A stretch of DNA of 64,000 nucleotides, taken from contig JBGPHE010000001.1 of the NCBI GenBank assembly GCA_041484255.1, positions 6,240 through 70,239 on the forward strand. The letters run 5' to 3'. A program made the position numbers and the translations under genes. The DNA comes from Candidatus Nanoarchaeia archaeon. GTDB lineage: Archaea; Nanobdellota; Nanobdellia; Woesearchaeales; ARS49. Shown here piece by piece: positions 3,125 through 53,535 of this stretch. The notes beneath the pieces were generated by a model, which searched no databases, was not told where the DNA came from, and saw nothing but the letters and a program-made list of their open reading frames with translations. Within the stretch, counting starts at the first letter, position 1. Each line of letters starts with the position of its first letter.

Positions 3125-3146
3125 TCGGTGAACACATATTCTCTCT

Positions 3147-4380: not shown

Positions 4381-4532
4381 AGTATCACCACTTTTTGGAG
4401 TCGTACGACTTCCACCCTTAAGACGACAAAGAGCAGAATGGGTATATAAACATTTCGTCCGAGGGCGGTGGTTACTTCACTAGACATACAGACGTAACGT
4501 TTAATAGCGAAATCAGCAAACTTGTAAACTAA

Positions 4533-26900: not shown

Positions 26901-27228
26901 CGCGAAGTTCATGCACCGCGCTCCCGAAGCGCCCGAACCCGACCTTCCGCCCGCGCCGGGACGCGAAGAGCCGCTGCCCGCGCCTGAGCTTGACAATGGC
27001 CTTGCGCAAGAGCACGAAACGCCCTTTACTGAGGAGCTTGAGCTGCAGCCCGCGATAAGCAAGCCCGAACCAGAAGTGCAACGCGCGCTTCCCAAGCCTC
27101 GCGTGGCACGCAGCCGCGAAGAATTGGAGCAGATTGAACGCAAGCTCGCAAGCATTGAGAGTTCATTATCACGCAGCCGGCGCGCCGCACCAAAGCGCAG
27201 CAGCGCACGCAGGAGGACGCGCAAATGA
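23914..27228 (+). CDS. Giant surface protein 1 (1104 aa): signal anchor, nucleotide pyrophosphatase/phosphodiesterase (AlkP-superfamily) domain, parallel beta-helix repeats, DUF11 domain, six-Cys stalk module, TM helix, basic tail
   Basis: Single open frame; domain motifs described in findings; N-x-S/T-rich; C-terminal TM about 26830-26905. Stop overlaps the gene 2 ATG. Confidence 0.8.
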   Translation: MTPEKRVAFAVLLCAAIIGAGVMLRDAHVTGDATFGTTDFTTQAVVAPKQVILIIVDGMQYNHYVTMLGFGNLSNFTRLLSRGGFNTTLNITKHTSTVTAPGNAEIYTGLGSSITGVTSDNCSTPVPVNTTIFERLKQFNASIATGTVYGKQTCYIPNGVLGNAMSAIDWFQNRSLYTNTNWTDNGDICAYARNASTKAQEFIVNNTNRSFFLVPYFGNPDCSGHVGTDNSVNYNNSFIEVDYALGILLDTLRDQGIENNTAIIISTDHGWNEGTTGHSTFNADTAIIPLITNNRSVIANATILGVRQQCDIAPTVLSYFGVPSANYSDIIANGCYSMYDSLFDTLTGCATINASTTLGQNIQAPGSGSCIIVNADNITLSCAGFSIGGNAAGTGINVTNRANVTIKDCVLENFTNNIVLNSTNASVIVNTTARKSTSTSILVRQGLRNLLANNTVSGDFIGILLFNGSNNTLRSNNVSGISTGITLFFTQNNTLINDTGASTSGTGIFLTASINNTLNSVLATSVSGNGLMFSSMGLGNNVIANTTGRSSSGIGVYLTSGANLNTLLNVTAASDSNAALAFDFSSGSNLFNDTTLLSNSTWLSADSDSYFNTLTNASFVSQFGGIAVLRNFTLPNATTVTLASLNITSNRAFLNSTNLSFLNQTAVITLNGVTSVDPKPQVALVDGGAFSDCLPTADPFCTELSFSGGVFVFNVSHFTTFASFESADVNVTLTKSDSPDPVNASGYLTYTITVNVSVGNASNVTLTDVYPAQVIFNGSQPAPLAGTNNTFVLGNLSLNTSTVVNITVLVLNVSNNTIINNTANISFQNSTGGIGRLNVTENTTVINLTFPAPSPSPTSSGGTSGGGGYSVRPTPNAPSVAASQNCFEGWACEGWSRCENGAQERACVDLNHCGTESLKPATTQSCASPHVQELVQEEVVEQPAELPPQQPQQPIQLQMQGTETSAVKTAFFTSGSALLWLLLFIILGGIIVTIAYAKFMHRAPEAPEPDLPPAPGREEPLPAPELDNGLAQEHETPFTEELELQPAISKPEPEVQRALPKPRVARSREELEQIERKLASIESSLSRSRRAAPKRSSARRRTRK
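24052..24900 (+). other. Nucleotide pyrophosphatase/phosphodiesterase (type I phosphodiesterase, AlkP-superfamily) domain of giant protein 1
   Basis: Motifs in NPP-like order: IIVDG (24079-24093), KHTSTVTAPG...YTG (Thr nucleophile context, about 24205-24240), PYFGNPDCSGHVG (24571-24594), STDHGW (24707-24724). Confidence 0.6.
26569..26691 (+). other. Six-Cys membrane-proximal module, copy in gene 1 (CFEGWACEGWSRCENGAQERACVDLNHCGTESLKPATTQSC)
   Basis: Conserved pattern shared with 35943-36065 and 52951-53073. Confidence 0.7.
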
Positions 27229-36731: not shown

Positions 36732-36738
36732 TCAATTG

Positions 36739-39700
36739 ATGGGGGACATGGGCAGAAACAGACGAGGGGTGGTGTCTGAACGGACGCTTATTGGCATTGT
36801 GCTACTTGCAGGGCTGCTCGGCATCGGCGTGATGCTCTGGGCGACGGGAATCGTCTCCTTTGCGCAGCAGCACGGCGTCACCGGCAGCGCGGTCGCGTCC
36901 ATCACCGGCCTCGCAGCGGATGATCTCGAAACGCAGCCGTCATTCACGGCCACGCCCGCTCCGAACACGGCGCCTATCTATAGAGGCCCTGCCAGCTTCA
37001 GCACGCCGCAGGACACAGCACTCACGATTGACTTGTCGCAGTACTTCTCCGATGCGGAAAACGACGAACTCACCTTCATCGCGTCGTCCGAAGACGTCAT
37101 CGCAGTCGCCATCGACGGCAACGCGCTCACGCTGACGCCTGCGGCAGGCTTCGCGGGCGAGCGTTCGCTGACCGTCATCGCGTCAGACGGCGTCAACCTC
37201 GCGCGCACGCCGGTCAAGATTGTCGTGGAAGGCACGCAGGCCACGCCGCCTGCACCGCAGCAGGAAGCTCCTGCGCCTGTGGAGCAGCCGCCCGCGACCA
37301 ACGAGTCCGCAGCGAACGAGACGCCGTTCAATACGCAGGAAGAAGAATTCACCAATCCTGTATTCAACACGCAAGTCACGAGCATCAGCGCCTGCACGAA
37401 CATCAGCACGCCGGGCGAGTACGCGCTCAGCACCGACCTCTCGCGGAACATCACCTGCATCGTCATCCAGACAGACAACGTGAGCTTCAGCTGCGCAGGC
37501 CACACTATCACCTGGGACACGCAAGGTCTGCGAAACATCTCAGGCTTCACGAGCTTCATCTCCGCGATCAACATCAACAAATCAGGCAGGACGCTCTTCA
37601 ATGTCACAGTCAGGGACTGCCGCCTGATCGACGGCACTGTCGGCGGATTCAACGACCACGCGATCGTGCTGCAGGACACGAACGATTCGCTCATTTTCAA
37701 CAACACCCTCGTTGCATCCGGCGAGACGTCGCTGGGAATTGAGATTGTTCGGACGGGAAACATCAACATCTCAAGCAACCGCATCAATGCGTCGTCGTTC
37801 GGAGGCGCTCAGGCGATCGCCAACGCGATCCAGTTCAATCTTTTCAGCAATAATGTCAGCATCTCCGACAATGACATCCGCGGATTCCTTTCCGGCAGCG
37901 GAATCAGGACGGTCGGCGTGATGGTTGACGCGACCTCGAATCCCCACGATGTGGAAGTCGTCGGGAACAGTATCACCGTCAACTCGACCGGTGGAAGCGC
38001 AACCTCAACAGGGATGAACGGCGTCACCGGCTTCGGCACATTCCTCAACGCGACCAACAATGACGTGCAGGCGTTCGGCTCAGGACCGAGCGGCGTGCTG
38101 GCAAATGGGGCGTTCTTCAACCGCATCCTCGCGCGGGGTTCCACCGCAGAGGGTCTGCGTGTCGGAGAGCTTGCAGACTCCAATAATATCACTGTGAATG
38201 GCAGCACCACTGGCGCGCTCGTGGGGTTTAACGGCAACTCGACATACAGCAACAACCGGCTCATCGCGACCGGCAGCTGGATATATACTTCCTTGAACGG
38301 GAACACTACTTTCATCAACACCACGTTTGTCAACGCAAATGGCACCCTCCTGTTCTACAATTTCTACATTGATGATGTCGTCATTGTCCAGCAGAGCGAC
38401 CTCAATACCACCATCAACCACGCCTATGTGAACAGCGTCGACTTCCCGTTCCTGAACACGAGCGCGGAGATCTTCCTGCAAGGATTCAATCTCACGAACA
38501 ACAAGCCCGTGGTCGACTACACGGACACCAACCACTTCCAGGGCTGCCCGGACACCTGCACGCTGCTCGAGACGGGCGACAACTTCATCCGCTTCACCGT
38601 CACGCACTTCACGACCTACTCGTCTTCGGACCTGGTCCTGCTGCTCGAAAAGTCCGACAGCACCGACCCGGTGCGCATCGGCTCGCTGTTCAATTACAGC
38701 GTCGCCGTGAGCGTGCTGAACGGCAACGCGAACAATGTCACGCTCACCGACCTGTACCCGCTTGAAGTTGTCTTCAATTCCTCGCAGCCTGACCCGATCG
38801 ACGGCACGAACGACACGTTCATCCTGGGCAACCTGACCGAGAACACGACGTTCATAGTGAACATCACGGTGCAGTCGCTGACGAACGATTCAGGCATCGT
38901 CAACGTCACCAACGGCACCGTCATCAACAACACCGTGAACATCACGTTCCAGAACGACACGAGCGACGTGTTCACGCTGAACGACACCGAGGAGACGACG
39001 CTCGTTGAGGCGACCGAGAACTTCGAGCCGCTCTCGGACTGCGCAGTCATCAATACCAGCTCGTTCCTGACGACGAGCGTTTCGGGCACGGGCACGTGCA
39101 TCACCATCGGCAATAACAGCATCACGCTGGAATGCGCAGGGAACACGATAACGTATGCGACAACAGGCCCGGGAAGCGCTATTTTCGCGGAAGACAAGTA
39201 TAATTTCACGGTGCGGAACTGCACGCTCGTGCTCGGCGACCTCAACAGGCTCTCCCTGTATGACTCGCCAGCCATCAACGCGACGAACACCACGAGCGGA
39301 GTCAACAACCGTATCGACGGCTCCTCGTTCCGCCTGCTCAATTACTTCTACCAGGACGGTTTGCCGCAGCAGAACTGCGGCGACCTCTCATTGAATGACT
39401 CAGCCTTCACCGGCAACGCCACGTGCACGAACATCACCTTTGTTGCGCGGGCGCGTATCAGGGTGAACTCGACCGCGGTCTCCAACAACTCAATCGCGTT
39501 TATCACGGACAACTTCCTGCTCGGGGTGCGCGCGTTCATCAACGCGAACGGCACCGGATACCCTGGAGGCGCGGATGGTAATGCGAACGGCTCCGGCCCC
39601 GGAGGCGGCATCGACCCGGTCAGTATCAATCGCGGCGGCGGCGGCGCAGGACACGGCGGAATCGGCGGCCAGAGCAATGTGCCGCAGGGCGCAGGCGGAA

Positions 39701-42700
39701 GGCCGTACGGCAGCTCCCTGAGCCCGATGACGCCCGGCAGCGGCGGCGCAACCGGTGACGGCGGCACCCACACCGGCGGAAACGGCGGCGGCGCGGTCTC
39801 CATCTTCGGCCAGAACGTCGTGCTGAACGGTGTCATCAGTGCGAGCGCAGGCAATGGGTCTGACGGCACCAATTCCGGCGGCGGCGGCTCGGGAGGAAGC
39901 ATCCTCGTGGTCGCAAATACGCTCTTCGGAAACGGCAGCTTCACTGCGCGCGGCGGCTTCGGCGGCAATGACCAAAGCACAGGAATCCAGTCCGGCGGCT
40001 CGGGCTCGGGTGGCCACATCGCAGTGAAGTTCAACACGAGCACGATGAATATCACGAGCGCGCACGCGCCCGGAGCGGAGAACGTGACCGCATTGGTCAA
40101 TCTCGGACAGCCGGGAACGGTCGGTTTCCTGGACATGGACGACAGCATCCTGTCCATCACTGAAGGCTGGAGATGGTCCAGCGAGGACGCGGCAGTCTGG
40201 AACTACACCGTCATCAACCTCACGAACGCGTACACGCACACGAACGAGAGCACGGTGAACATCACCGCAGTCCTGATTGTCCTGCACAACGCGAGCATCA
40301 GCAAAGAGAACGTGACCACCGGCATCGACGTCAATGTCTCCCTCACCATAAGCGCGGAGAATTTCGTGATGGACCCCTCGGAGATTGACGGAGCAGTCAT
40401 CAATATCACCGCAGGGAACTTCACGCTGGGCGCAGACTCGCTCATCAATGCGACCGGCACGGGCTTTGAAGGCGGTTTCAATGGCAATTCGAATGGTTCC
40501 GGTCCCGGAGGCGGCATCGATCCGGTCAACTTCAACCGCGGCGGCGGTGGAGCGGGCCACGGCGGCATCGGCGGCCAGAGCAATGTCGTCCAGGGCGCGG
40601 GCGGCAGGCCGTACGGCAGCGCGCTCAACCCGTTCACCTTTGGAAGCGGCGGGGGAACCGGCGAAAGCGGCAACCACCCAGGCGGAAACGGAGGCGGCAT
40701 CGTCATTATCAGCGCGAGCCACATCATTCTCAATGGCACCATTAATGCAGACGGCGGCAATGGGTCTGACGGCACCAATTCCGGCGGAGGCGGCTCGGGC
40801 GGCTCCATCAATATCATCACCGATGCGCTTGAGGGCAGCGGCAACCTGAGCGCGCGCGGCGGCTATGGCGGATGGGACCAGAGCACAGGCATCCAAGCCG
40901 GCGGCTCGGGAGCGGGCGGCCACATCATCGCGCGGTTCAATGCCAGTACGTTCCCGGTGACCAACGCGCACGTCGAACAAACAGAGAACGTCTCCGGGCT
41001 GGGCTTCTTCAGCCAGCCGGGAACGCTCGGCTTCATCGACATCGACGACGACATCCTCACGATTGTAGAAGGCTGGCGATGGACAAGCGAGGACACGGAC
41101 GTCTGGAACTTCACCGTCATCAACCTGAGCAATGCGTACACGCGCACGAACGAAAGCGCCGTGAGCGTCGATGCGCTGCGGTTCACGCTGGAGAACTCGT
41201 CGATCACCCAGGAAAACCTGACCTTCGGCATCCACGTGAACACGACATTCAGCGTCAATGCGAGCGTGGTGCTGATGAACCGCTCGCTCATCGTCAACCT
41301 GACGGTTGTGAACATCACCGCGGCGGACGTCACCATCCTCGAAGACGCAGCCATCAACCTGACCGGCACGGGCTTTGAGGGTGGCTTCAACGGCAACTCC
41401 AACGGCTCAGGTCCCGGTGGAGGCATCGACCCGGTTAACTTCAACCGCGGCGGCGGTGGAGCGGGCCACGGAGGCATCGGCGGCCGGAGCAATGTCGTCC
41501 AGGGCGCAGGCGGCAGGCCGTATGGAAGCTCGCTCAACCCGCTCACCTTGGGCAGCGGCGGGGGAACCGGCGAAAACGGCAACCACCCTGCAGGAAACGG
41601 CGGCGGCCTCGCCATCATCAGCGGCACACGCGTGAATATCAGCGGAACGGTAAGCGTGGACGGCGGCAATGGAACTGACGGCACCGATTCCGGCGGCGGC
41701 GGCTCAGGAGGAAGCATTTTCATCACCGCAGACTCCTTTGACGGCACCGGCGGATTGCTCTCGAGCGGCGGCTTCGGCGGCTGGGACCAGAGCACAGGCA
41801 TCCAGTCCGGCGGTTCGGGCGCGGGCGGACACATCATCGCGCAGTTCAACACCAGCACGTTCCCCATCGCCAACGCGCACGTCACCGGAACGGAAAACGT
41901 CAGCGCGCTGGTCTTTTACAGCCAGCCCGGAACGCTCGGATTCATTGATATCGATGACGATACGCTCACGATTTCAGAAGGCTGGCGCTGGACAAGCGAG
42001 GACACAGACGTCTGGAACTTCACCGTCATCAATGTGACCGACGCGTTCACCCGTTCGAATGACAGCAGCGTGACTATCTCCTCAGGCACGCTCACGTTCA
42101 CCAATGCGTCGTTCACGCAGGAGAACCTGACGGTCGACTACCAGCTCAACCTGACGCTCAGCGCCGCCGCAGACACCATCGCGCTGAACAATTCGCTCAT
42201 CACCAACCTCACACAGGTGAACCTCAGCGCAGGCAACCTGAGCGTGCAGGATGATGCAGTCATCGCCGTCGTCGGGACAGGATTTGCCGGCGGCGCAATC
42301 AGCCAGAACGGTTCCGGACCGGGCGGTGGCGTCATCAATGACGGCTTCACGCGCGGCACCGGCGCAGCACACGGCGGCAAGGGAGGACAGCCGGCAGGAG
42401 GAATCATCACGGTCGCGCGCGGCCCGTACGGAAGCACACTGAATCCTGACACGCTCGGTTCGGGAGGCTCGGGAAGCGCGCAGACGCCCGGCGGCTCAGG
42501 CGGCGGCGTCATCTTCATCAGCGCGGCGCGCGCAAGCATCAACGGCACGCTCAACGCGGACGGCGCGAACGGCACGGACGGATCAAGCGTCAACACCGGC
42601 GGAGGAGGCTCGGGAGGCAGCATCGCCATCGTCGCAGGAATCTTTGAAGGCACCGGCACCATCACTGCCCGCGGAGGAAACGCAGGAACGTCGTTCTTCG

Positions 42701-45700
42701 CGGACGCGTCAAGCGGCGGAGCAGGTGGAGGACGCATCATCGTGCGGTTCAATACCAGCACGTTCCCCGTCGCGCAGGCGTCCGTGGCCGGCGGCCAGAA
42801 CGGAAGCGGATCATCGTCAACGGGCGAGCCCGGAACGCTCGGCTTCCTCGACATCGACAACGACATCCTCACCGTTGTGGAAGGCTGGCGCTGGCAGAGC
42901 GACGACAAGAGCATTTGGAACTTTACCATCATCAATATCACCGACGCGCTCACGCGCGCAAATGACACCACGCTGAACTTCTCCGTGGGAACGCTCGTGA
43001 TGAGCAACGCCACCCTGCGCGCGGACAACGCGAGCGGCAACATCACACTCTTCATCAACATCTCCGCGGCCAATGTCTCGCTCCTGGATGGCGCGTTCAT
43101 CCTGCTGAACGGCTCGGGCTTTATGGGCGGCGCAATCAGCCAGAACGGTTCCGGACCGGGCGGCGGCGTCATCAATGACGGCTTCACGCGCGGCACGGGC
43201 GCATCCCATGCAGGCAAGGGAGGACAGGCGGCAGCAGGAATCATCTCGGTCGTGCGCGGCCCGTACGGCAGCTCATTGAATCCTGACACGCTCGGAAGCG
43301 GAGGCTCGGGAAGCGCGCAGACGCCCGGCGGCTCGGGCGGCGGAACGATCGCAATCAGCGCCGCGCGCGTGAGCGTCAACGGATCCATCATTGCCGATGG
43401 CGTGAACGGCACATCTGGCTCGAGCGTCAACACCGGCGGAGGAGGCTCGGGCGGCTCCATCAACATCATCACCGGCATCTTCGAGGGCAATGGCACGCTC
43501 AGCGCGCGCGGAGGCGATGCGGGAGTGTCGTTCTTCGCGGACGCGTCCAGCGGCGGAGCAGGCGGCGGACGCATCATCGTGCGCTTCAACACCAGCGCAT
43601 ATTTCCTTTCGCGCGCGGCAGTGACCGGCGGGGAGAACGGAAGCGGGAGCTCCTACCGGGGCCAGCCGGGAACGCTCGGATTCTATGACGTTGACGATAA
43701 CGTGCTCACCCTGCAGGAGGGCTGGAGATGGGAGCAGGAGGACGAGCCGATGAGCTTCGGCAATGTCACGACAAACCACACGCTCATCTTCAGCAACGCG
43801 ACCGTGCTCGTGACGGACACGTTCCGCGCAAACCGCATCAACTGGAGCGCGGACGAGAACCAGACGACGGTGTTCAACACGTCGCGCCTCATCATCGGCA
43901 ACTCGAGCGTGAACGCAACGGGAAGGCTCGTGTTCATTTACAGCAGCCAATTCAACGACAGCAACACGCTGTATCTCCAGGGCGCAAACTTCTCGCTGGA
44001 AAACCAGACCGTCGCGCGCGTCTCGTGGACCGAGTTCAGCGCGAACGTCGGCAACATCAGCGCGCGGACGCGGCTGCAGACGCGCAGGGCCTTCGTGAAC
44101 GCGACCGGCATGCAAGGCATGAACACGACGGCGAACATCACGTTCTTCGGTGTGAACTTCGGCACGCCCAAGGCGCAGGTCGACCTCGCGGACACCGGAA
44201 CGTTCGTGAACTGCGTGCCGTTCATCAACCCGTTCTGCACCACGCAGAGCTATGCGGACAATGTCTTCACGTTCAACACCTCGCACTTCACCACCTATAC
44301 TGTCGTGGAAGGAGGCGTTTCGCTTGCCCTGACCAAGACCGATACCCCTGACCCTGTGTTTGCAGGCAACACGCTGAGCTATGCAATACTGCTCAACCTC
44401 ACCGCGCAGGACGCGTTCAATGTCACGCTCACCGACATCTATCCCAACCAGACTATTTTCGTGAGCGCAGAGCCGTCGCCCATCAGCGGAACGAACAACA
44501 CATTCATCGTGGGCAACCTGACTGAGAACGATACGTTCATCATCAACATCACCGTCATGGTGCGTTCGGATACGTCGAACGGCATCGACATCAACAACAC
44601 GGCAAACATCAGCTTCCAGAACAGCACCGGCGCGATGTTCACGGCAAATGTCACGGAAAGCACGCACGTGGTGACGTCCAACAGGCCCGTCATCGCGCAG
44701 GTCATCCTGAACACGACAGATGTCACGCTGAACGACACCAACCAGAACCTGACCCTGTTCATCATCAACGCGACCGACGCGGACGATAACACCGTCTGGA
44801 ACATCACCGACTTCCGCAGGAACAACATCAGCATCGCGGTCGTGAACTACGCGTTCGAGACCAATATCAGCACGGTCTCGGCAAGCGTCCGCGACTACAG
44901 CACGTACAGCGCGAACGGCACGCTGGGCACTGCAGGCCAGAATCCCACGTGGAACCTCTCGGGACCGCTGGGCGGCGCGTACTACTTTGACGGCAATGAC
45001 TTCATCACCGCACCTGCGACCGCGCCGACCCTCCCGCTGACGTTCGAATTCTGGGTGAAGCCAGCGACGAGCAGCCCTGTCGGCATCTTCGACACTGCGC
45101 CTGGCTCGGGCGGCGTGCTGCGCAACTTCCCCGGTGGAGTGATTGAATGGCACGGCGGCGACCCCACGCTCGCCCTTGACGTGGTCGGCGGCAACTGGTA
45201 CCACATCGTGCTTATCTTCAGCTTTGACGGCGCACGGCACATCACGTATTACCGCAACGGCACGTTCATCGCGACCGCCAATGGCAGCGCGAGCAGCGGC
45301 TTCGCGTGGACGACGATGCGGCTGGGCGACATCAACAACGGCGGCGCAGGAACGTATACTGGCGAGATGAGCGAATTCCGCGTCTACAACCGCTCGCTCA
45401 CCGCATCAGAGATCGAACAGCTGTACATCGAGGGCGTCGCAGGAAGGCACCCGCAGATCATCACCCGCGGCAACACCGTCGCAGGCGATGTCTGGCAGGC
45501 CTGCGCCACGCCGAACGACAACAACCTCACCGGAAGCAGCGGCGATGGCACGACTGTCTGCAGCAACAACGTCACCATCAACAGCGTGCAGACGGTCGCG
45601 CCGGTCATCGCGCAGGTCATCCTCAACTCGACCGACCCGAGCAAGAACGACACCAGCCAGAATCTCACCTTGTTCGTCATCAACGCGACCAGCGCCAGCA

Positions 45701-48700
45701 ATGCTGCGGTGCGGAACATCACCGACTTCCGCAGGAACAACGTGAGCATCGCAGTCGTGAACATGCCGTTCGAGACCAATGTCACCAGCGTCGCGACCGG
45801 ACTCATTCGCGACTACGGGACCTGGGGCAACAACGGCACGCTGGGCGGCGGCACCGCGGCGAACGCCCCGCTCTGGAACAACTCCGGCAAGGTCGGCGGA
45901 GACTATGTCTTTGACGGAAGCAACGACTTCATCTCACTCACCGAGCCGCCTGCGGGCTCCACCAACCTCGCCAACGGCAGCGTCTTTGCGTGGATACGCA
46001 CGGCAAACGCGGGCGCGAGCTACCGCGGCATCGTGATCAAGCAGGACGCCTATGGTATGTTCCTGCTGGACAATGTGTTCATCATCCACGACTGGAACGC
46101 CGCGGCCGACCGCACCACGGGCATCAATGTCGCGGACGGCGAATGGCACCTGGTCGGCTTCACGTTCCAAAGCGGGGTCGCGGGCGGCACCAAGCTGTCC
46201 ATCGACGGCCAGATCAACCTGACCACAACACTCACCATCAACTCGCAGAGCGAGGGAATCGTCATCGGCGCAGGAGACAACCCCGGCACCCTCCAGTTCT
46301 TCGGCGGCCAGATTGACGAAGTGATGGTCTTCAATGGCACGCTCACCCCGACGCAGATAAGCCAGCTCTACCAGGACGGCATCCAGAACAAGAGCCTGGA
46401 CGTGATCACCGCGGACGAGCTCGCGGCAGGCGATGTCTGGCAGGGCTGCGCAACTCCGAACGACAACATCAGCGACGGCAACACCACCTGTAGCAACAAC
46501 GTGACCATCCTTGCGGTACAGAACGGCACGAATGTCGCGCCAACCATTGCGCAAGTCATCCTGAACACGACGAACCCGTTGCTGAATGACACGAACCAGA
46601 ACCTGACCGTCTTCATCATCAACGCGACGGACGCGAATGGCGATGCAGTGCAAAACATCACGGACTTCCGCACGAACAACTTCAGCATTGCCTTGCTGAA
46701 CATGCCGTTCGAGACGAACGTCAGCTCCGTGAGCGCGCGCGCGATCAGGGACTACTCCACCGATGAGGCAAATGGAACGCTCGGCAATGGCGCCGCAGGA
46801 CAAGCGCCCGTCTGGGACACGCAGTGCAAGGTTGGCGGATGCTACCAGTTCGACGGAACCGACGACTATATTGATGTCGGCAACGAAAGCCTCTTCGACA
46901 TCGAATTCAATCAGCCATTCACGCTTTCCTCCTGGATAAACACCACGAACAGCGCGAACGACGACTTCATCATCGCAAAGGAAGAGAACAGCGGAAACTT
47001 CAGGGGATACTACTATTTGATTGACAACGGAGCGGGCGGTGTTATCAACTGCCTCATTGAGAGCAGTGCCGCCAATCTCATTCAAGTGCGAGGCTCCACC
47101 GTCGTGCGCGACGGCAGCTGGCACAATGTCGTCTGCGCATATAACGGCTCAGGGACCGCGGCAGGAGTGACTCTCTACGTTGACGGCAACCTCGAGTCGA
47201 TGACGACCGTGAGCGACAACCTTGCAGGCAACACCATTCTGAACAATGTCGATGTCACCATCGGCTCACGGGCTTCGGCAGGAGTGCCGCTCCAGGGACG
47301 CGTCGACGAGGCATACATCTTCAACCATTCGCTCTCTGCCGCGCAGGTCAAGCAGCTCTACCTCGACGGCAACGCGAGCAAGCACGTGATGACGATCGTG
47401 CAGCCGGAAACGCAGGCAGGCGACATCTGGCAGGCCTGCGCCACACCTAATGACAACCTCACGGACGGCAACACGACGTGCAGCAACAACGTGACCATCT
47501 TCGCGCAGCAGAACTCGACCTACAGCCCGCCGACCATCGCGCAGGTCATCCTCAACACCACGAATGTCTCCCTCAATGACACCAACCAGAACCTGACCGT
47601 CTTCATCATCAACGCGACCAGCGCCCAGAATTACTCCGTGCAGAACATCACGGACTTCCGCCGCAATGCGACAAGCATCGCAGTCATCAACCTGCCGTTC
47701 GAGACGAACGTCACGAACGCGACGCTGGGGAACGGCATCCGCGACTACAGCTCGTTCAACAACAGCGGCACGCTTGGCGGCGGAACGCAGGCGAACGCGC
47801 CGGTCTGGAACGCGACAGGCCAGATTGGCGGCTACTATGACTTTGACGGCACGAACGATTTCATCCAGTTCAACGACTCGCCCTCGCTGAGCATCGCAGG
47901 AAGCGCGCTGACCATGGAAGCATGGGTGCAGACGCCGGAATCGGCGCCGGCATTGTTCGACAGGATCGTGGTGAAAGAGGTCAACACAAACGCAGATCCG
48001 TTCATCAGGTATGCACTGTATCGCACCGGCGGCACAAACACAGTGAAATTCGGCGTTTCCACCGGCGGCGCAGGAACGATAGGCCAAGTCACAAGCAACT
48101 TCAGCATCCCGCTGAACACGTGGTTCCATATGGTGGGAACGTACGATGGCGCGAACCTGCGGCTGTACCTCAACGGCGAGCTGAACAACACCGTGGCAAA
48201 TACCGGCGCAATCGCCACGAGCACGACGCCGCTCGTCATCGGCGGCAACACGGAAATCAGCGACGAGTTCTTCAACGGCTTCATCGACGAAGTGCGCGTC
48301 TACAACCGCACGCTGACGCCCGACCAGATCAGGCAGGACTACCAGGCAGGCGTCGCGCACCACCAGCCGCTCATCATCGCGAGCAACGAGACCATTGCAG
48401 GAGATATCTGGTCTGCGTGCGCCACGCCGAACGACAACATCAGCGACGGCAACACGACGTGCAGCAACAACGTGACCATCACTGCGGTGCAGAACAACAC
48501 CGTGTTCAACCTGAGCAATGTCACGCTCACGAAGCTGGACAGCCCTGACCCGGTGAACGCGAGCAGCAACCTCAGCTATACTATTATTATCAACGCGACC
48601 GCTGACTCGCCGGCGAACATCACGCTGACCGACACTTACCCTGCGCAAGTCATCTTCCTGGACTCGCAGCCCAGCCCGCTGGCAGGAACCAACAACACGT

Positions 48701-51700
48701 TCATAGTGGGCAATCTGACCGAGAACAACACATTCATTGTCAATATCACTGTGTTGGTGCTGAATGTGACGAACGGCACCGTCATCAACAACACGGCGAA
48801 CATCAGCTTCCACAACCAGACCGGCTCACAGGTCGCCGTGACTGCGACACAGAGCACGACCGTGCTCGCTGCCCCGAACGCCACGTTCAACTCGAGCAAT
48901 ATCAGCGTCGTCAAGACCGACTTCCCCGATCCGGTCGAAAACGGCTCGCAATTGAGCTACACGATCGCGGTCGCGAGCAATGGCAACGGCACGGCGTACA
49001 ATGTGACCGTGAACGACACGTATCCGCCGCAGGTCGTCTTTGATAGTGCCCAGCCAAGCCCGCTCGCAGGAACGAACAACACATTCATCCTGGGCAACCT
49101 CACCGCGGGAACGAACATCCTCATCAATATCACGGTAAACGTCTCCGGCAGCGTGCCGAACAACACACTCATCAATAACACGGTGAATGTGACGTTCCAG
49201 AACGAGACCAGCGACGTCCTGAGCCGCATTTCGACGGCAAGCACGCAAGTCATCGTAATCATCAGCACGCTGACCGGCTGCCCCGTGACCATCAATGAGA
49301 CCACGACACTGACGCAAAGACTGCAGAGCAATAGCTCGTGCATCACGTTCGGCACGGACAACATCTCGCTGGACTGCTCGGGCTTCAGCATCGGCGGCAA
49401 TTACTCCGGCAACGGCATCTCCGCAACGAACCGGCTGAACATCAGCATCAGGAACTGCTTCATCGAGAACTTCACGACCAACATCATCCTCCAGGGAACG
49501 AACCGGAGCACGGTCGCCAGCAACATCGCGCGCAACTCCAGCCAGCAGAGCATGGAAATCCAAACCAGCGCGCACGACTCCATCGAAAATAACACTGCAC
49601 AGAGCAGGACGAACGTCGGCATCAATGTCACGACGGGAATAAACGTCACGCTGGCGAACAACAACGGGACGTCTGTCTCGGGCGTGGGCATCAGCATCGA
49701 CACGGGAAGCGTCAACAATACGCTCACCAACAACAACGGAACCAGCACGTCAGGACAGGGCATCTTCCTGTCGTCAGCGTTCAACAACACGCTCAGGAAC
49801 AACAAGGCAACCACTGCAGGCGCGCCTTCTGCGCTCCAGCTGTCAAGCAGCAACGGCAATCTGCTGGTGAACAACAGCGGAATCCATACGGGCTCAGGCG
49901 CGGGAATCGCAATCTCTGTCAGCGACTACAACGTGCTGGTGAACAACACCGGAATCGGCAACCAAGGCATTGCGCTTGGGGACATAAACTCAGACTGGAA
50001 CAATTTCACGAACAACATCGGCCAAGGAACGAGCTTGGGCGCGAGTGTCAGCGCGAGCCAGAACAACACGTTCGTCAATAACACGTTCGCGACAAACACG
50101 GGAACAAGCATTACGCTGGCAGGCCTTGCAGGCACTGCCGCACTCAACAACACGTTTACGAATACGACGCTGTTGACTAATGGGACGTGGTTCTCTACGA
50201 ACGGCGACGGCCTGAACAATTCGTTCACCAACACTGTGTTTGTCAGCTTCAACGGCACCATCCGCATCCTGCCGACCGTGCAGCTGCCCAACGCGACCAC
50301 GGTGGACGTCCGACAGCTGAATGTCTCGTTCAACCGTGCGCACCTGAACTCGAGCAACCTGTCCTTCCTCAATACGACCGGCCAGATCACGCTCACGGGC
50401 GCCGTGAGCAACCAGCCGCTCGTTGACTTCGAGGACGACAACACGTTCACGCTCTGCGACGCAAGCATCTGCACCGTGCAAAGCTTCGCAGGCGGCGCGC
50501 TCATCTTCAACGTGACGCACTTCACGACGTACTCGTCGACCGCGGGCAACTCCAACTTGACGCTCACGAAGACTGACTCGCCAGACCCGGTCAATGCGAG
50601 TAGCAACCTGAGCTACCAGATTTCGGTCAATGTCACGTCCGACAGTCCGAGCAACATCACGCTGACTGACCAGTATCCTGCGCAGGTGATCTTCCTGACC
50701 GCGCAGCCGTCGCCCATCACGGGAACGAACGACACGTTCATCATCGGTAACCTGACGAACGGAAGCTCGTTCAGCGTCAACATCACTGTGCTCGTGCTGA
50801 ACGTGACGAACGGCACCGTCATCAATAACACGGCGAACATCAGCTTCCAGAACGCGTCCGGAGTCACGTTCTTCGCGACCGTGACCGAGAACACAACGGT
50901 GCGCGCACAGGTAATCCAATTCAACCTCACGAATGTCACGCTGACCAAGACCGACTCGCCCGACCCGGTCAACGCGAGCGGCATCCTGAACTATACTGTA
51001 ACGGTGAATGCGACCGCGGACTCGCCTGCGAACATCACGCTGACTGACCAGTACCCTGCACAAGTCATCTTCTTGAGCGCCCAGCCTTCACCGCTTGCAG
51101 GAACGAACAACACGTTCATTGTGGGCAACTTGACCGCGGGCCAGGCGTTCATCGTGAACATCAGCGTGCTCGTGCTGAACGTGACCAATGGCACGATTAT
51201 CAATAACACTGCCAATATCACCTTCACCAACCAGACCGGAAGCGTGCTGACGCTCAACGCGACACAGTCGACGACTGTGCTTGCGGCCGGCAACGCCACG
51301 TTCAACAACAGCAACATCTCGGTCACGAAGATTGACGCTCCTGACCCGGTGAACACGAGCGCGCAGCTGAACTACACCATCAACGTGACGAGCAATGGCA
51401 ACGGAACCTCGTACAATGTGACTGCGAACGACACATACCCTGCGCAAGTCATCTTCTTGAGCGCCCAGCCGACGCCGCTGGCAGGAACCAACAACACCTT
51501 CATCCTAGGCAACCTGACCGCAGGCCAGAGTGTCCTGATTAACGTGACCGTGCTGGTGCTCAACATCAGCAACGGCACGCTCATCAACAACACCGTGAAC
51601 GTGACATTCCAGAACGAGACCAGCGCAGTGCTCAGCAGGATTGCGAGCACGAGCACGCTGGTCATCAACCTCACCTTCACGCCGCTCTTCAACGCGAGCA

Positions 51701-53535
51701 ATGTCTCAATCACGAAGACGGACACGCCTGACCCCGTCAACACCAGCCAAAACCTGACGTATCAAATTAACGTGACGAGCACGGGCAACGGCACGGCGTT
51801 CAATGTGACCGTGAACGACACGTATCCGAATGAAGTCATCTTCCTGACTGCCCAGCCGTCGCCGAGCGTTGGCAACAACACGTTCACCCTGGGCAATTTG
51901 ACGCCGGGAACGGTCCGCAGCATCAACATCACCCTGCTGGTGCTCAACATCAGCAACAGCACGCTCATCAACAACACTGCGAATGTGACCTTCCAGAACG
52001 AATCCAGCGGATTGTTCAGCAGAATCGCGAACACCAGCACGACAGTGCAGAACATCACCATCATCCCGCTGTTCAACCTGAGCAATGTCAGCATTACGAA
52101 GACTGACTCACCAGACCCTGTGAACACGAGCCAGAACCTCACTTACCAGATCAACATCACGACCTCAGGCAATGGCACGTCGTTCAATATCACTGTCAAT
52201 GACACCTACCCCAACGAAGTCATTTTTGTGAGCGCACAGCCGTCGCCGACCGTCGGCAACAACACATTCCTGCTCGGCAACCTGACTGCGGGAATCACAC
52301 GCAGCATCAACATCACTGTGATGGTGCTGAATATCAGCAACAGCACCGTCATCAACAACACCGCAAATGTGACCTTCCAGAACGAGACGAGCGGATTGTT
52401 CAGCAGAATCGCGACCGCGAGCACGACGGTGCAGAACTTCAGCATCTTCCAGCTCTTCAACACAAGCAACATCAACATCACCAAGACCGACACACCCGAC
52501 CCGGTTGAGAACGGCACGCAACTGAACTACACCATTGTCGTCAATGTCACGGGCAATGGCACGTCGTTCAATACGACAGTGGTAGACACCTATCCTAATG
52601 AAATTGTCTTCACCAGCGCTCAGCCCACGCCGAGTTCAGGTAATAACACGTTCATCCTGGGCAATTTGACGCCAGGAACAGTCATCCGCATCAACATCAC
52701 GGTGAATGTGATGCAAGTAGTCAACGGAACAGTCATCAACAACACTGCGAATGTCACATTCCAGAACGAATCCAGCGGACTGTTCAGCAGGATTGCGAAC
52801 ACGAGCACAACCGTGCAGAACGTAAGCCCTGCGCCAGTGCAGAACATCCAGGTCGGAGGCGGCGGCTACCGCACGCCTACAATTGGCGGAGTGATCCCTG
52901 CGCAGCCAGTACCACCCGCAGTACCTCCTGCAGTTCAGTCGCCGCAGGCCTGCATTGAGAACTGGGTGTGCGAAGGCTGGGGACCGTGCACGGACGGCAA
53001 GCAGACGCGCCTGTGCGAAGACCAGAGCTCCTGCGGAACCGTAGCGCGCAAGCCTTCAACAGAGTTTGACTGCGGTGAAACGCCGCAGCCGGCTTCAGTT
53101 GCTGTAGAAACGCCAGCAGAAGTGCCTGCTTCCGAGCAGCCGATCTCGCTGCCGACAGTCGCAGGCACAAGTCAGGCAATAACGCAGCGTTTGCAGTCAG
53201 TCAGCGCGCTGCCGTGGACGTGGATACTCATCGGTTTCATTGTCCTAGGCGTGCTTGTCACGCTGGGCTTCTCCTATCCGCGCGGACGAAGCGACGAGCC
53301 GCCGCAAATGCCCAAGCCAGTGATGGAAGTGCGCGCTCCGCCGCGTCGGGAAGCGCCAAAAGCGCAGCCAAAGCCTGTTGAAAAGCCCTTGCCGAAGCTT
53401 CCCGTCATCGCGCCTGCCAAGATGGACCACGAACAGCTCCACGAGACTGACGTGCAGGCCAAGCAGCGCATGAAGGAGCTCGACGAGCGCCTGAAGAAGC
53501 TCGAACGCACGCTCAGCAGGCACAGAAAGCGCTGA
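36739..53535 (+). CDS. Giant surface protein 3 (5598 aa): signal anchor, He_PIG/cadherin-like Ig domain, beta-helix, DUF11, 5 Gly-rich 300-aa repeats, 4 LamG-like repeat units, 8 more DUF11 units, six-Cys stalk module, TM, coiled basic tail
   Basis: Single 16.8 kb open frame. First ATG at 36739, 7 nt after the gene 2 stop (the ORF-track start at 36736 is a TTG). Confidence 0.8.
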   Translation: MGDMGRNRRGVVSERTLIGIVLLAGLLGIGVMLWATGIVSFAQQHGVTGSAVASITGLAADDLETQPSFTATPAPNTAPIYRGPASFSTPQDTALTIDLSQYFSDAENDELTFIASSEDVIAVAIDGNALTLTPAAGFAGERSLTVIASDGVNLARTPVKIVVEGTQATPPAPQQEAPAPVEQPPATNESAANETPFNTQEEEFTNPVFNTQVTSISACTNISTPGEYALSTDLSRNITCIVIQTDNVSFSCAGHTITWDTQGLRNISGFTSFISAININKSGRTLFNVTVRDCRLIDGTVGGFNDHAIVLQDTNDSLIFNNTLVASGETSLGIEIVRTGNINISSNRINASSFGGAQAIANAIQFNLFSNNVSISDNDIRGFLSGSGIRTVGVMVDATSNPHDVEVVGNSITVNSTGGSATSTGMNGVTGFGTFLNATNNDVQAFGSGPSGVLANGAFFNRILARGSTAEGLRVGELADSNNITVNGSTTGALVGFNGNSTYSNNRLIATGSWIYTSLNGNTTFINTTFVNANGTLLFYNFYIDDVVIVQQSDLNTTINHAYVNSVDFPFLNTSAEIFLQGFNLTNNKPVVDYTDTNHFQGCPDTCTLLETGDNFIRFTVTHFTTYSSSDLVLLLEKSDSTDPVRIGSLFNYSVAVSVLNGNANNVTLTDLYPLEVVFNSSQPDPIDGTNDTFILGNLTENTTFIVNITVQSLTNDSGIVNVTNGTVINNTVNITFQNDTSDVFTLNDTEETTLVEATENFEPLSDCAVINTSSFLTTSVSGTGTCITIGNNSITLECAGNTITYATTGPGSAIFAEDKYNFTVRNCTLVLGDLNRLSLYDSPAINATNTTSGVNNRIDGSSFRLLNYFYQDGLPQQNCGDLSLNDSAFTGNATCTNITFVARARIRVNSTAVSNNSIAFITDNFLLGVRAFINANGTGYPGGADGNANGSGPGGGIDPVSINRGGGGAGHGGIGGQSNVPQGAGGRPYGSSLSPMTPGSGGATGDGGTHTGGNGGGAVSIFGQNVVLNGVISASAGNGSDGTNSGGGGSGGSILVVANTLFGNGSFTARGGFGGNDQSTGIQSGGSGSGGHIAVKFNTSTMNITSAHAPGAENVTALVNLGQPGTVGFLDMDDSILSITEGWRWSSEDAAVWNYTVINLTNAYTHTNESTVNITAVLIVLHNASISKENVTTGIDVNVSLTISAENFVMDPSEIDGAVINITAGNFTLGADSLINATGTGFEGGFNGNSNGSGPGGGIDPVNFNRGGGGAGHGGIGGQSNVVQGAGGRPYGSALNPFTFGSGGGTGESGNHPGGNGGGIVIISASHIILNGTINADGGNGSDGTNSGGGGSGGSINIITDALEGSGNLSARGGYGGWDQSTGIQAGGSGAGGHIIARFNASTFPVTNAHVEQTENVSGLGFFSQPGTLGFIDIDDDILTIVEGWRWTSEDTDVWNFTVINLSNAYTRTNESAVSVDALRFTLENSSITQENLTFGIHVNTTFSVNASVVLMNRSLIVNLTVVNITAADVTILEDAAINLTGTGFEGGFNGNSNGSGPGGGIDPVNFNRGGGGAGHGGIGGRSNVVQGAGGRPYGSSLNPLTLGSGGGTGENGNHPAGNGGGLAIISGTRVNISGTVSVDGGNGTDGTDSGGGGSGGSIFITADSFDGTGGLLSSGGFGGWDQSTGIQSGGSGAGGHIIAQFNTSTFPIANAHVTGTENVSALVFYSQPGTLGFIDIDDDTLTISEGWRWTSEDTDVWNFTVINVTDAFTRSNDSSVTISSGTLTFTNASFTQENLTVDYQLNLTLSAAADTIALNNSLITNLTQVNLSAGNLSVQDDAVIAVVGTGFAGGAISQNGSGPGGGVINDGFTRGTGAAHGGKGGQPAGGIITVARGPYGSTLNPDTLGSGGSGSAQTPGGSGGGVIFISAARASINGTLNADGANGTDGSSVNTGGGGSGGSIAIVAGIFEGTGTITARGGNAGTSFFADASSGGAGGGRIIVRFNTSTFPVAQASVAGGQNGSGSSSTGEPGTLGFLDIDNDILTVVEGWRWQSDDKSIWNFTIINITDALTRANDTTLNFSVGTLVMSNATLRADNASGNITLFINISAANVSLLDGAFILLNGSGFMGGAISQNGSGPGGGVINDGFTRGTGASHAGKGGQAAAGIISVVRGPYGSSLNPDTLGSGGSGSAQTPGGSGGGTIAISAARVSVNGSIIADGVNGTSGSSVNTGGGGSGGSINIITGIFEGNGTLSARGGDAGVSFFADASSGGAGGGRIIVRFNTSAYFLSRAAVTGGENGSGSSYRGQPGTLGFYDVDDNVLTLQEGWRWEQEDEPMSFGNVTTNHTLIFSNATVLVTDTFRANRINWSADENQTTVFNTSRLIIGNSSVNATGRLVFIYSSQFNDSNTLYLQGANFSLENQTVARVSWTEFSANVGNISARTRLQTRRAFVNATGMQGMNTTANITFFGVNFGTPKAQVDLADTGTFVNCVPFINPFCTTQSYADNVFTFNTSHFTTYTVVEGGVSLALTKTDTPDPVFAGNTLSYAILLNLTAQDAFNVTLTDIYPNQTIFVSAEPSPISGTNNTFIVGNLTENDTFIINITVMVRSDTSNGIDINNTANISFQNSTGAMFTANVTESTHVVTSNRPVIAQVILNTTDVTLNDTNQNLTLFIINATDADDNTVWNITDFRRNNISIAVVNYAFETNISTVSASVRDYSTYSANGTLGTAGQNPTWNLSGPLGGAYYFDGNDFITAPATAPTLPLTFEFWVKPATSSPVGIFDTAPGSGGVLRNFPGGVIEWHGGDPTLALDVVGGNWYHIVLIFSFDGARHITYYRNGTFIATANGSASSGFAWTTMRLGDINNGGAGTYTGEMSEFRVYNRSLTASEIEQLYIEGVAGRHPQIITRGNTVAGDVWQACATPNDNNLTGSSGDGTTVCSNNVTINSVQTVAPVIAQVILNSTDPSKNDTSQNLTLFVINATSASNAAVRNITDFRRNNVSIAVVNMPFETNVTSVATGLIRDYGTWGNNGTLGGGTAANAPLWNNSGKVGGDYVFDGSNDFISLTEPPAGSTNLANGSVFAWIRTANAGASYRGIVIKQDAYGMFLLDNVFIIHDWNAAADRTTGINVADGEWHLVGFTFQSGVAGGTKLSIDGQINLTTTLTINSQSEGIVIGAGDNPGTLQFFGGQIDEVMVFNGTLTPTQISQLYQDGIQNKSLDVITADELAAGDVWQGCATPNDNISDGNTTCSNNVTILAVQNGTNVAPTIAQVILNTTNPLLNDTNQNLTVFIINATDANGDAVQNITDFRTNNFSIALLNMPFETNVSSVSARAIRDYSTDEANGTLGNGAAGQAPVWDTQCKVGGCYQFDGTDDYIDVGNESLFDIEFNQPFTLSSWINTTNSANDDFIIAKEENSGNFRGYYYLIDNGAGGVINCLIESSAANLIQVRGSTVVRDGSWHNVVCAYNGSGTAAGVTLYVDGNLESMTTVSDNLAGNTILNNVDVTIGSRASAGVPLQGRVDEAYIFNHSLSAAQVKQLYLDGNASKHVMTIVQPETQAGDIWQACATPNDNLTDGNTTCSNNVTIFAQQNSTYSPPTIAQVILNTTNVSLNDTNQNLTVFIINATSAQNYSVQNITDFRRNATSIAVINLPFETNVTNATLGNGIRDYSSFNNSGTLGGGTQANAPVWNATGQIGGYYDFDGTNDFIQFNDSPSLSIAGSALTMEAWVQTPESAPALFDRIVVKEVNTNADPFIRYALYRTGGTNTVKFGVSTGGAGTIGQVTSNFSIPLNTWFHMVGTYDGANLRLYLNGELNNTVANTGAIATSTTPLVIGGNTEISDEFFNGFIDEVRVYNRTLTPDQIRQDYQAGVAHHQPLIIASNETIAGDIWSACATPNDNISDGNTTCSNNVTITAVQNNTVFNLSNVTLTKLDSPDPVNASSNLSYTIIINATADSPANITLTDTYPAQVIFLDSQPSPLAGTNNTFIVGNLTENNTFIVNITVLVLNVTNGTVINNTANISFHNQTGSQVAVTATQSTTVLAAPNATFNSSNISVVKTDFPDPVENGSQLSYTIAVASNGNGTAYNVTVNDTYPPQVVFDSAQPSPLAGTNNTFILGNLTAGTNILINITVNVSGSVPNNTLINNTVNVTFQNETSDVLSRISTASTQVIVIISTLTGCPVTINETTTLTQRLQSNSSCITFGTDNISLDCSGFSIGGNYSGNGISATNRLNISIRNCFIENFTTNIILQGTNRSTVASNIARNSSQQSMEIQTSAHDSIENNTAQSRTNVGINVTTGINVTLANNNGTSVSGVGISIDTGSVNNTLTNNNGTSTSGQGIFLSSAFNNTLRNNKATTAGAPSALQLSSSNGNLLVNNSGIHTGSGAGIAISVSDYNVLVNNTGIGNQGIALGDINSDWNNFTNNIGQGTSLGASVSASQNNTFVNNTFATNTGTSITLAGLAGTAALNNTFTNTTLLTNGTWFSTNGDGLNNSFTNTVFVSFNGTIRILPTVQLPNATTVDVRQLNVSFNRAHLNSSNLSFLNTTGQITLTGAVSNQPLVDFEDDNTFTLCDASICTVQSFAGGALIFNVTHFTTYSSTAGNSNLTLTKTDSPDPVNASSNLSYQISVNVTSDSPSNITLTDQYPAQVIFLTAQPSPITGTNDTFIIGNLTNGSSFSVNITVLVLNVTNGTVINNTANISFQNASGVTFFATVTENTTVRAQVIQFNLTNVTLTKTDSPDPVNASGILNYTVTVNATADSPANITLTDQYPAQVIFLSAQPSPLAGTNNTFIVGNLTAGQAFIVNISVLVLNVTNGTIINNTANITFTNQTGSVLTLNATQSTTVLAAGNATFNNSNISVTKIDAPDPVNTSAQLNYTINVTSNGNGTSYNVTANDTYPAQVIFLSAQPTPLAGTNNTFILGNLTAGQSVLINVTVLVLNISNGTLINNTVNVTFQNETSAVLSRIASTSTLVINLTFTPLFNASNVSITKTDTPDPVNTSQNLTYQINVTSTGNGTAFNVTVNDTYPNEVIFLTAQPSPSVGNNTFTLGNLTPGTVRSINITLLVLNISNSTLINNTANVTFQNESSGLFSRIANTSTTVQNITIIPLFNLSNVSITKTDSPDPVNTSQNLTYQINITTSGNGTSFNITVNDTYPNEVIFVSAQPSPTVGNNTFLLGNLTAGITRSINITVMVLNISNSTVINNTANVTFQNETSGLFSRIATASTTVQNFSIFQLFNTSNINITKTDTPDPVENGTQLNYTIVVNVTGNGTSFNTTVVDTYPNEIVFTSAQPTPSSGNNTFILGNLTPGTVIRINITVNVMQVVNGTVINNTANVTFQNESSGLFSRIANTSTTVQNVSPAPVQNIQVGGGGYRTPTIGGVIPAQPVPPAVPPAVQSPQACIENWVCEGWGPCTDGKQTRLCEDQSSCGTVARKPSTEFDCGETPQPASVAVETPAEVPASEQPISLPTVAGTSQAITQRLQSVSALPWTWILIGFIVLGVLVTLGFSYPRGRSDEPPQMPKPVMEVRAPPRREAPKAQPKPVEKPLPKLPVIAPAKMDHEQLHETDVQAKQRMKELDERLKKLERTLSRHRKR
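36967..37235 (+). other. He_PIG/cadherin-like Ig domain at the N-terminus of giant protein 3
   Basis: PIYRGPASFSTPQDTALTIDLSQYFSDAENDELTF...LTLTPAAGFAGERSLTVIASDG; paralogous to 54166-54435 in gene 4. Confidence 0.55.
39540..43700 (+). repeat. Five tandem Gly-rich repeats of about 300 aa in gene 3 (periods 906, 909, 906, 837 nt)
   Basis: The anchor NGSGPGGG recurs at 39586, 40492, 41401, 42307, 43144. Each unit is a Gly-rich half (GGGGAGHGGIGGQSNV...GGGGSGGSI...) plus an FNTSTFP...WRWTSEDTDVWNFTVINL half. Confidence 0.75.
44690..48490 (+). repeat. Four LamG-like (Laminin_G_3 / concanavalin-A-like jellyroll) repeat units of about 300 aa in gene 3
   Basis: Unit starts (IAQVILNTT...) at about 44691, 45603, 46546, 47533. 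Core ...YYFDGNDFI....FEFWVKP.......G.WYH......G....YRNG......G.......FRVYNRSLTA.EI.QLY. Confidence 0.65.
50545..52850 (+). repeat. Array of 6 consecutive DUF11-type units in gene 3 (8 after 48.5 kb counting two at about 48510-49260)
   Basis: Same unit consensus as gene 2. Unit starts at about 50560, 50935, 51310, 51700, 52090, 52475. Confidence 0.65.
52951..53073 (+). other. Six-Cys membrane-proximal module, copy in gene 3 (CIENWVCEGWGPCTDGKQTRLCEDQSSCGTVARKPSTEFDC)
   Basis: Same Cys/Trp spacing; followed by a Pro-rich stalk, a TM helix (about 53207-53272) and a coiled basic tail. Confidence 0.7.

Follow-up and report, generated by a model that had tools for sequence, protein, structure and literature searches.

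The 64,000-nucleotide (nt) window analyzed here, from contig JBGPHE010000001.1 of a Candidatus Nanoarchaeia archaeon, contains a giant gene, g3, which carries five tandem Gly-rich repeat units. The array extends over nt 39511-43923 of the window on the plus strand (amino acids [aa] 926-2396). In an original prediction made by a model from the DNA sequence alone, the array had been placed at 39540-43700; the location was right, but these limits were slightly too narrow. The open reading frame (ORF) and its units are as follows.

36736-53535, plus strand: g3, giant ORF of 16.8 kb encoding 5,599 aa, listed start TTG
39511-40416, plus strand: repeat unit 1, aa 926-1227, subtype A, 471 bits against the unit profile
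40417-41325, plus strand: repeat unit 2, aa 1228-1530, subtype A, the unit used for structure prediction
about 40417-40941, plus strand: Gly-rich core of unit 2, residues 1-175
40942-41325, plus strand: non-Gly half of unit 2, containing FIDIDDDIL and EGWRW
41326-42231, plus strand: repeat unit 3, aa 1531-1832, subtype A
42232-43068, plus strand: repeat unit 4, aa 1833-2111, subtype B
43069-43923, plus strand: repeat unit 5, aa 2112-2396, subtype B, the terminal unit, with a diverged tail past EGWRW

Repeat units and antisense ORFs

The octapeptide NGSGPGGG occurs five times in g3, at aa 951, 1253, 1556, 1858 and 2137 (nt 39586, 40492, 41401, 42307 and 43144), while about 4e-5 occurrences would be expected by chance in 5,599 aa of the protein's own composition. 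All five are in frame, and a recount of their spacings gave exactly the predicted 906, 909, 906 and 837 nt. The array was cut into units at nt 39511, 40417, 41326, 42232 and 43069, with the end at 43923, and the units were aligned with MAFFT. Over approximately 270-300 aa, the pairwise identity between units was 42-71% for protein and 55-77% for DNA. Units 1-3 (57-71% protein identity) form subtype A and units 4-5 (68%) form subtype B, in line with the division into copies 1-3 and 4-5 that had been noticed originally. Unit 4 is shorter than the others because its C-terminal spacer is shorter. When the six-frame translation of the whole window was searched with a unit profile, exactly five copies were detected, all within g3. 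Together with the anchor positions, this bore out the presence of five tandem repeats of about 300 aa. Tandem Repeats Finder reported no repeat in 38000-45000, because the period exceeds its 500-nt limit.

Each unit indeed pairs a Gly-rich half with a conserved non-Gly half, as predicted. The Gly content of the Gly-rich half is approximately 35% (33% in residues 1-175 and 35% in residues 26-175), so that the earlier estimate of 45%, made by eye, was too high; it is approximately 5% in the other half. The longest Gly run in the array is 4. The non-Gly half contains the acidic and aromatic motif FIDIDDDIL...EGWRW, which all five units and close relatives carry without change. EGWRW is located at window positions 40162, 41068, 41977, 42880 and 43717, with FIDIDDDIL about 12 codons upstream. 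Since FIDIDDDIL was found in just 36 of 693 family copies, we rejected it as a family-wide functional site; FIDIDDDIL/EGWRW may be a metal or ligand site specific to the subfamily.

On the opposite strand, four long ORFs were listed.

39490-41235, minus strand: antisense ORF, not a gene
40863-41885, minus strand: antisense ORF, not a gene
42138-43592, minus strand: antisense ORF, not a gene
43273-45240, minus strand: antisense ORF, not a gene

Their translations are of low complexity, with either 21-23% Pro or a composition rich in Ala, Val, Arg and Asp. In the sense frame, differences between units are more frequent at codon position 3 than at positions 1 and 2 in 10/10 unit pairs, and thousands of homologues of the sense-frame product exist. 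Because of this codon-position pattern, the low complexity and the sense-frame homologues, we conclude that the antisense ORFs are by-products of a coding strand rich in GGN, AAC and ACC, and that they were correctly suspected to be spurious. Long antisense ORFs above such GGN-rich genes should not be called genes during annotation. The antisense strand is open over long stretches because of Asn/Thr-rich (AAC/ACC) coding. This is consistent with the strand asymmetry of the window between 24000 and 64000, where the GC skew falls to -0.21 and the AT skew rises to +0.33 over the giant genes.

Tandem repeats are classic trouble spots of assembly, and the window apparently comes from a metagenome assembly, as the thermosome that it encodes has no exact match on record and its closest homologues are from metagenomes and metagenome-assembled genomes (MAGs). 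We nevertheless consider it extremely improbable that the five-copy number is an artefact of repeat collapse or expansion. The units differ by 23-45% in DNA, the longest exact DNA run common to two of them is 38 nt, and g3 contains no exact repeat of at least 40 nt, which makes such an event unlikely. Furthermore, the frame is open throughout the 16.8 kb, and the independent assemblies of relatives carry arrays of 2-12 units.

Predicted fold and relatives of the unit

The structure of unit 2 was predicted with AlphaFold2, using a 49-sequence alignment (A2) of unit-length segments taken from matches of an exhaustive homology search (see below). The resulting model (m025bbc138699) had a mean predicted local distance difference test (pLDDT) score of 92.8 and a predicted template modeling (pTM) score of 0.92; the five models ranged from 91.9 to 92.8 in pLDDT, and no segment of the unit fell below 50. 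The prediction for one unit had been set beforehand as a check, and the outcome was an ordered unit. Beta strands were predicted at residues 95-105, 130-139 and 169-174, at the GGxGG-[IV]x[IV] positions right behind the GGNGGG, GGGGSGGS and GGSGAGG runs, and also over the larger part of the non-Gly half (203-302). Residues 12-94 reached pLDDT values of 81-97, yet have no regular structure according to DSSP. The consensus of 853 family copies contains three homologous rungs of 33-39 aa: GGAGGGAIRIVAGTLTLDGTISANGGNG; GGSGGSIWITAGTLSGSGTISANGGNG; GGGGGRIAVYYNTSTFTG... Thus, the modeling strongly supports an ordered, beta-rich unit. A solenoid-like stack is the natural reading of the model, which is consistent with this topology without proving it. 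Of the earlier suggestion of a Gly-rich beta-solenoid instead of disorder, the order and the strands at the GGxG-[IV] rungs are therefore retained, and the solenoid is kept as a candidate topology.

The Gly-rich stretches could in principle be disordered or elastomeric linkers of the silk or elastin type. With approximately 35% Gly, the core has a suitable composition, residues 12-94 lack regular structure in the DSSP assignment, and AlphaFold2 with the five window copies alone gave a pLDDT of 46, with residues 16-91 below 50. However, the latter run was discarded, as the deeper alignment lifted the same residues to 81-97. Moreover, single Gly positions are invariant over thousands of homologues, beyond what mere composition would explain, Gly runs do not exceed 4, and simple periodic GXY or nonapeptide repeats are not present. 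Because the 49-sequence prediction reached 92.8 with no segment below 50, we rejected disorder, which we regard as hardly tenable.

The exhaustive search was conducted with HMMER against 1.84 billion cluster representatives (clusters at 50% identity). It yielded 6,593 matches at E <= 1e-3, 3,121 at E <= 1e-10 and 724 at E <= 1e-30. Most of the best 150 matches have a length of 1,000-7,000 aa and align to the profile in 2-12 stretches. A word-indexed protein search with one unit returned only 36 weak and fragmentary matches, because Gly-rich words saturate its candidate list. For the analysis of conservation, 186 matches were reanalyzed, giving the above-mentioned 853 copies. The core shared by these copies corresponds to profile positions ~10-175, and only approximately 20% of them also contain the EGWRW-bearing non-Gly half. 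Full invariance among the 49 diverse copies of A2 is restricted to 15 Gly columns and one Pro column. Conserved residues of a catalytic type were seen neither in this alignment nor in the 853 copies.

No Pfam model matched the units (E <= 0.1), the 49 family members (E <= 1) or eight other relatives. In Pfam and NCBIfam, the sole curated model that contains the module is AgmC_N (NF047640). Unit residues 27-178 are colinear with positions 237-400 of the 412 positions of this model, with scores of 40.1 bits (E 2e-10) for one unit and 75.5 bits (E 3.9e-21) for the array, compared to a curated cutoff of 275. The model was also matched by 33 of the 49 diverse family members (best E 3e-13). AgmC is an adventurous gliding motility protein of Myxococcus, and we know of no characterization of the role of its Gly-rich segment. 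AgmC contains one copy of the core, but g3 is not an AgmC orthologue, since only positions 237-400 match and the scores are below the cutoff. Model positions 1-236 are absent from g3, which, unlike the AgmC model, is archaeal and has five tandem copies and a spacer half. None of the open-access papers searched mentions AgmC, and searches for giant Gly-rich proteins of DPANN or Omnitrophota, or for bacterial polyglycine-II, retrieved nothing on the module.

A Foldseek search of the PDB with the predicted model gave no match at E <= 1e-3. The top nonsignificant matches are beta-helices, namely ice-binding proteins, tapirin, LpxD/GlmU and pectate lyases (E >= 0.19; template modeling [TM] score <= 0.25). 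Sequence searches of the PDB, with one unit and with the 49-sequence profile, returned nothing at E <= 10. The unit resembles PbH1/NosD beta-helices in having repetitive rungs with alternating, putatively inward Ile/Val and in its occurrence in secreted giant proteins, and genuine PbH1 regions adjoin Gly-rich units in the same proteins. It differs from the PbH1 models in its rungs of 33-39 aa, which open with GGxGG, and in the best TM score of no more than 0.25 in the PDB. Furthermore, the beta-helix models of Pfam and NCBIfam (Beta_helix PF13229, NosD and TIGR03804) had no match within aa 926-2396; the same models do match the neighboring genes g1 and g4 and relatives.

The only significant structural neighbors that we found are four giant-virus proteins in BFVD, all of them predicted models: A0A7S6NY19 of a Bathycoccus virus, A0A6H1QWC9 of an Ostreococcus virus, S4VX73 of a Pandoravirus and A0A2I2L380 of an Orpheovirus (E 5e-7 to 8e-4; 24-29% identity; ~210-226 columns; TMq 0.35-0.44). 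They are labeled as a prasinovirus PA14 protein, an Ostreococcus virus protein and 'collagen-like' proteins of Pandoravirus and Orpheovirus, are all uncharacterized, and share only the core with the unit. The label 'collagen' is not applicable to the unit, because it has no GXY runs.

Three further candidates were rejected. A collagen-like structure would need triplet runs, and the array has neither a run of at least 4 G-nonG-nonG nor one of at least 6 G-x-x triplets. For an RTX beta-roll, two isolated GGxGxD matches were found, with no tandem nonapeptides (GGxGxDxUx) in the array. The Gly-rich domain of ALK/LTK and PF12810 are extracellular, ordered and very rich in Gly, with a low-complexity look, and served as a lead only. 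PF12810 was unmatched at E <= 1 for the 49 members. As regards a lattice of polyglycine-II helices, residues 12-94 of the model show only an absence of regular DSSP structure, and the array has no Gly run longer than 4. ALK/LTK entries were absent from the best 50 of 80 Foldseek PDB matches (E <= 10), and the family profile matched no PDB chain at E <= 10.

Distribution and evolution of the array

GTDB species genomes were scanned with two peptide patterns from the five-copy alignment, which gave at least 33 loci. Among these, full units were found in Woesearchaeota, and cores in Aenigmarchaeota, six lineages of the candidate phyla radiation (CPR), Bdellovibrio, Bradymonadales, Omnitrophota, Planctomycetota, Verrucomicrobiota, Lentisphaerae and a few others. 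This pattern of lineages suggests a link to cell-contact lifestyles. On the chromosome of Bdellovibrio sp. HCB209 (L006, 85-4779), two adjacent ORFs contain three cores each. The complete ORF (2008-4779) has a signal-like N terminus, and the other, as listed, starts inside a repeat. Both end in a shared PW[LF]FRG[YH] sequence, possibly a sorting signal.

Close multidomain relatives contain four (P0038), three (P0040 and P0044) or two (P0050) copies. In a neighbor-joining tree, which has no support values, the units mostly cluster protein by protein; among those of the window, 4 and 5 join the final units of other arrays, and 1-3 join internal ones. This grouping suggests that internal and terminal unit types diverged long ago and that duplications within individual lineages came later. 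A syntenic relative, contig k141_2016595 (L034, 10001-23608), has a thermosome 91% identical to that of the window and the same RsmB...PGK neighborhood. On this contig, a 3-unit array is located in the giant subtilase gene orthologous to g2, the gene upstream of g3, while g2 of the window has none. The downstream g3-like gene of the contig contains no Gly-rich units in the 3,334 aa visible. Because of the three units in the g2 orthologue, the array behaves like a cassette, passing from one giant gene to its neighbor and changing its copy number. Such variation in copy number and host gene among close relatives (2-5 copies) is typical of fast-evolving surface modules.

Host protein and putative role of the units

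Outside the array, g3 has the following features.

36787-36855, plus strand: N-terminal hydrophobic segment LIGIVLLAGLLGIGVMLWATGIV, signal or anchor, from a Kyte-Doolittle window above 2.0 at aa 16-20 and a motif search
44692-48528, plus strand: second tandem array, four repeats of ~305-330 aa, each with Laminin_G_3 (Pfam)
50566-52875, plus strand: DUF11/CLIPPER array with a period of ~127 aa, from Pfam, TIGR01451 and motif starts
53215-53271, plus strand: C-terminal transmembrane anchor WTWILIGFIVLGVLVTLGF, followed by an 87-aa basic tail

The true start of g3 is probably the ATG at 36739, one codon after the listed TTG. The protein has only two hydrophobic segments, at aa 16-40 and 5490-5515, and the 87-aa tail has no Pfam or NCBIfam domain match. 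Its 375 N-X-S/T sequons compare with 128 +/- 10 in shuffled sequences, while the housekeeping proteins of the window have almost none. In line with these signals, g3 is probably a type-I-like membrane-anchored, glycosylated surface fiber. Pfam recognized four Laminin_G_3 and nine DUF11 stretches. The repeats of the Laminin_G_3 array start at aa 2653, 2958, 3271 and 3601, and each opens with ...IAQVILN; this array is also found in g4, with approximately 47% identity across 1,500 aa. A TIGR03804 parallel beta-helix repeat outside the Gly-rich array was weak (17.5 bits, below the NCBIfam cutoff of 19.45 bits). A Cys-rich segment, CIENWVCEGWGPC..., lies between the DUF11/CLIPPER array and the membrane anchor. 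DUF11 corresponds to CLIPPER, a family treated in a survey of intramolecular isopeptide bonds (PMC12617251), and a family with such bonds would suit a load-bearing stalk.

Relatives bear signal peptides and anchors, and the partner domains in g3 and its relatives are LamG, DUF11/CLIPPER, parallel beta-helix and subtilase. According to the passages available from reference PMC6642349, SPEARE proteins are giant, mostly extracytoplasmic surface proteins of DPANN Nanohaloarchaeota, with a C-terminal transmembrane anchor, laminin-G or adhesion domains and a serine protease. The partner-domain repertoire above matches the one given there. Like SPEARE as described in these passages, g3 is a DPANN protein of several thousand residues, mostly extracytoplasmic, with a C-terminal transmembrane anchor and LamG or adhesion domains. 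A serine protease is a further shared element; it is part of the protein itself in SPEARE and is encoded here in the adjacent paralogue g2. In contrast, the cytoplasmic type III restriction-endonuclease-like region, in these passages the most conserved part of SPEARE, is absent from g3, and the passages contain no mention of Gly-rich modules.

We lean towards the view that the units serve as rigid modules, structural or adhesive, in the stalk of a giant surface fiber for cell contact. The five units would be ordered and rich in beta structure, stacked in tandem in the extracellular portion of a heavily N-glycosylated, membrane-anchored Woesearchaeota protein. Each would comprise a Gly-rich core of ~175 aa with three rungs of the type GGxGGxIxIxAxxLxGxGxIxAxGGxG, preceded by a Gly/Pro-rich chain of ~70 residues, which is confidently predicted and has no regular secondary structure, and a sequon-rich beta spacer of ~100-130 aa. 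We read the core as architectural and not catalytic, because only Gly, Pro and buried Ile are conserved family-wide; it may serve as a building block that is compact and resists proteases. Arranged head to tail without linkers, the units could form a stiff stalk or fiber segment of tens of nm for all five, as a rough estimate. Such a stalk would hold the lectin-like LamG and other domains off the cell and may add to contact with the host cell surface. The analysis itself shows the repeats and their order, the sequon excess, the signals of surface topology and the size of the family; the rod geometry, the glycosylation and the role of g3 in host or cell contact are what we infer from these features.

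Several points count against the stalk. The solenoid topology, the stacking of unit on unit and the rod length are extrapolated from the model of a single unit, the PDB offered no significant structural match, and the lineage pattern comes from a scan with two peptide patterns. In addition, the invariant FIDIDDDIL...EGWRW hints at a ligand or metal site, and a purely structural reading leaves this motif unexplained. The main rival is a core that is itself a binding surface, i.e., an adhesin module for glycans or S-layers of the host envelope, with the repeats providing avidity. The family does occur in attaching or preying lineages (DPANN, CPR, Bdellovibrio, Bradymonadales and Omnitrophota, among the at least 33 loci), the core is represented in a single curated model, that of the N-terminal domain of AgmC, a gliding-motility protein of Myxococcus, and the best structural neighbors are surface-type proteins of giant viruses, one of them a PA14-domain protein. 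The subfamily of the window also has the invariant acidic/Trp motif. However, this acidic motif is present in only 36 of the 693 family copies, and the family-wide conservation of only Gly, Pro and buried Ile includes no conserved exposed polar or aromatic residues. Bona fide lectin-like LamG domains are present elsewhere in g3, and the lineage pattern is descriptive. Overall, we judge an adhesive core to be unlikely, though it deserves the most attention among the alternatives.

Degradation of host envelopes by a catalytic beta-helix, for example one with polysaccharide lyase or hydrolase activity as in many PbH1 proteins, seems very improbable. It is brought to mind by the subtilase, the phosphodiesterase/sulfatase and the PbH1/NosD beta-helices of nearby genes and modules, and by the pectate lyases among the weak Foldseek matches. 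However, these Foldseek matches are nonsignificant, Pfam enzyme or Beta_helix matches were not obtained for units or relatives, and conserved acidic or basic catalytic residues were not found family-wide.

A broader proposal can be made, which we offer as tentative and rather doubtful. The ~175-aa core could represent a large uncurated superfamily (at least 6,593 clusters at 50% identity) with a fold that has no solved relative, perhaps with noncanonical Gly packing in residues 12-94. It could be a signature block of cell-contact fibers in episymbiotic or predatory microbes (DPANN, CPR, Bdellovibrio and Omnitrophota) and in some giant viruses. If true, the core would constitute a new structural class, and its presence in a genome would be a useful marker of attachment machinery. 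Few genomic clues exist to the attachment of DPANN and CPR to hosts; giant surface proteins are one of them, and the greater part of their sequence lacks annotation. Here, a stretch of low-complexity appearance is a confidently predicted folded module that recurs thousands of times, with no Pfam model or significant PDB neighbor. The novelty is modest but concrete: judged by its model, the module is confidently folded, very abundant, uncurated and has no solved structural relative that we could find, so that its value lies in annotation and structure over mechanism. The analysis provides a seed alignment for a new domain family and a target for structure determination.

Neighboring genes and organism

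The gene g3 belongs to a series of four giant genes, of which the other three are listed here.

23866-27228, plus strand: g1, 1,120 aa, phosphodiesterase/sulfatase and beta-helix
27225-36731, plus strand: g2, 3,168 aa, subtilase S8 and DUF11
53925 to the window end (64000), plus strand: g4, at least 3,358 aa, running off the window, LamG and beta-helix

Together, g1-g4 are consecutive plus-strand mosaic paralogues that fill the last 40 kb of the window, with shared blocks that are 35-65% identical. The frames of g1 and g2 overlap by 4 nt (27225-27228). In all four genes, N-X-S/T sequons are 2-3 times as frequent as expected from shuffling. Across the whole 64-kb window, no tRNA and no Rfam family was found at the gathering threshold. 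Other genes of the window encode a thermosome, FtsZ, a class I Glu/Gln-tRNA synthetase and PGK. Proteins of Woesearchaeota MAGs share 86-98% identity with the thermosome, which identifies the organism as a DPANN archaeon of the Woesearchaeota.

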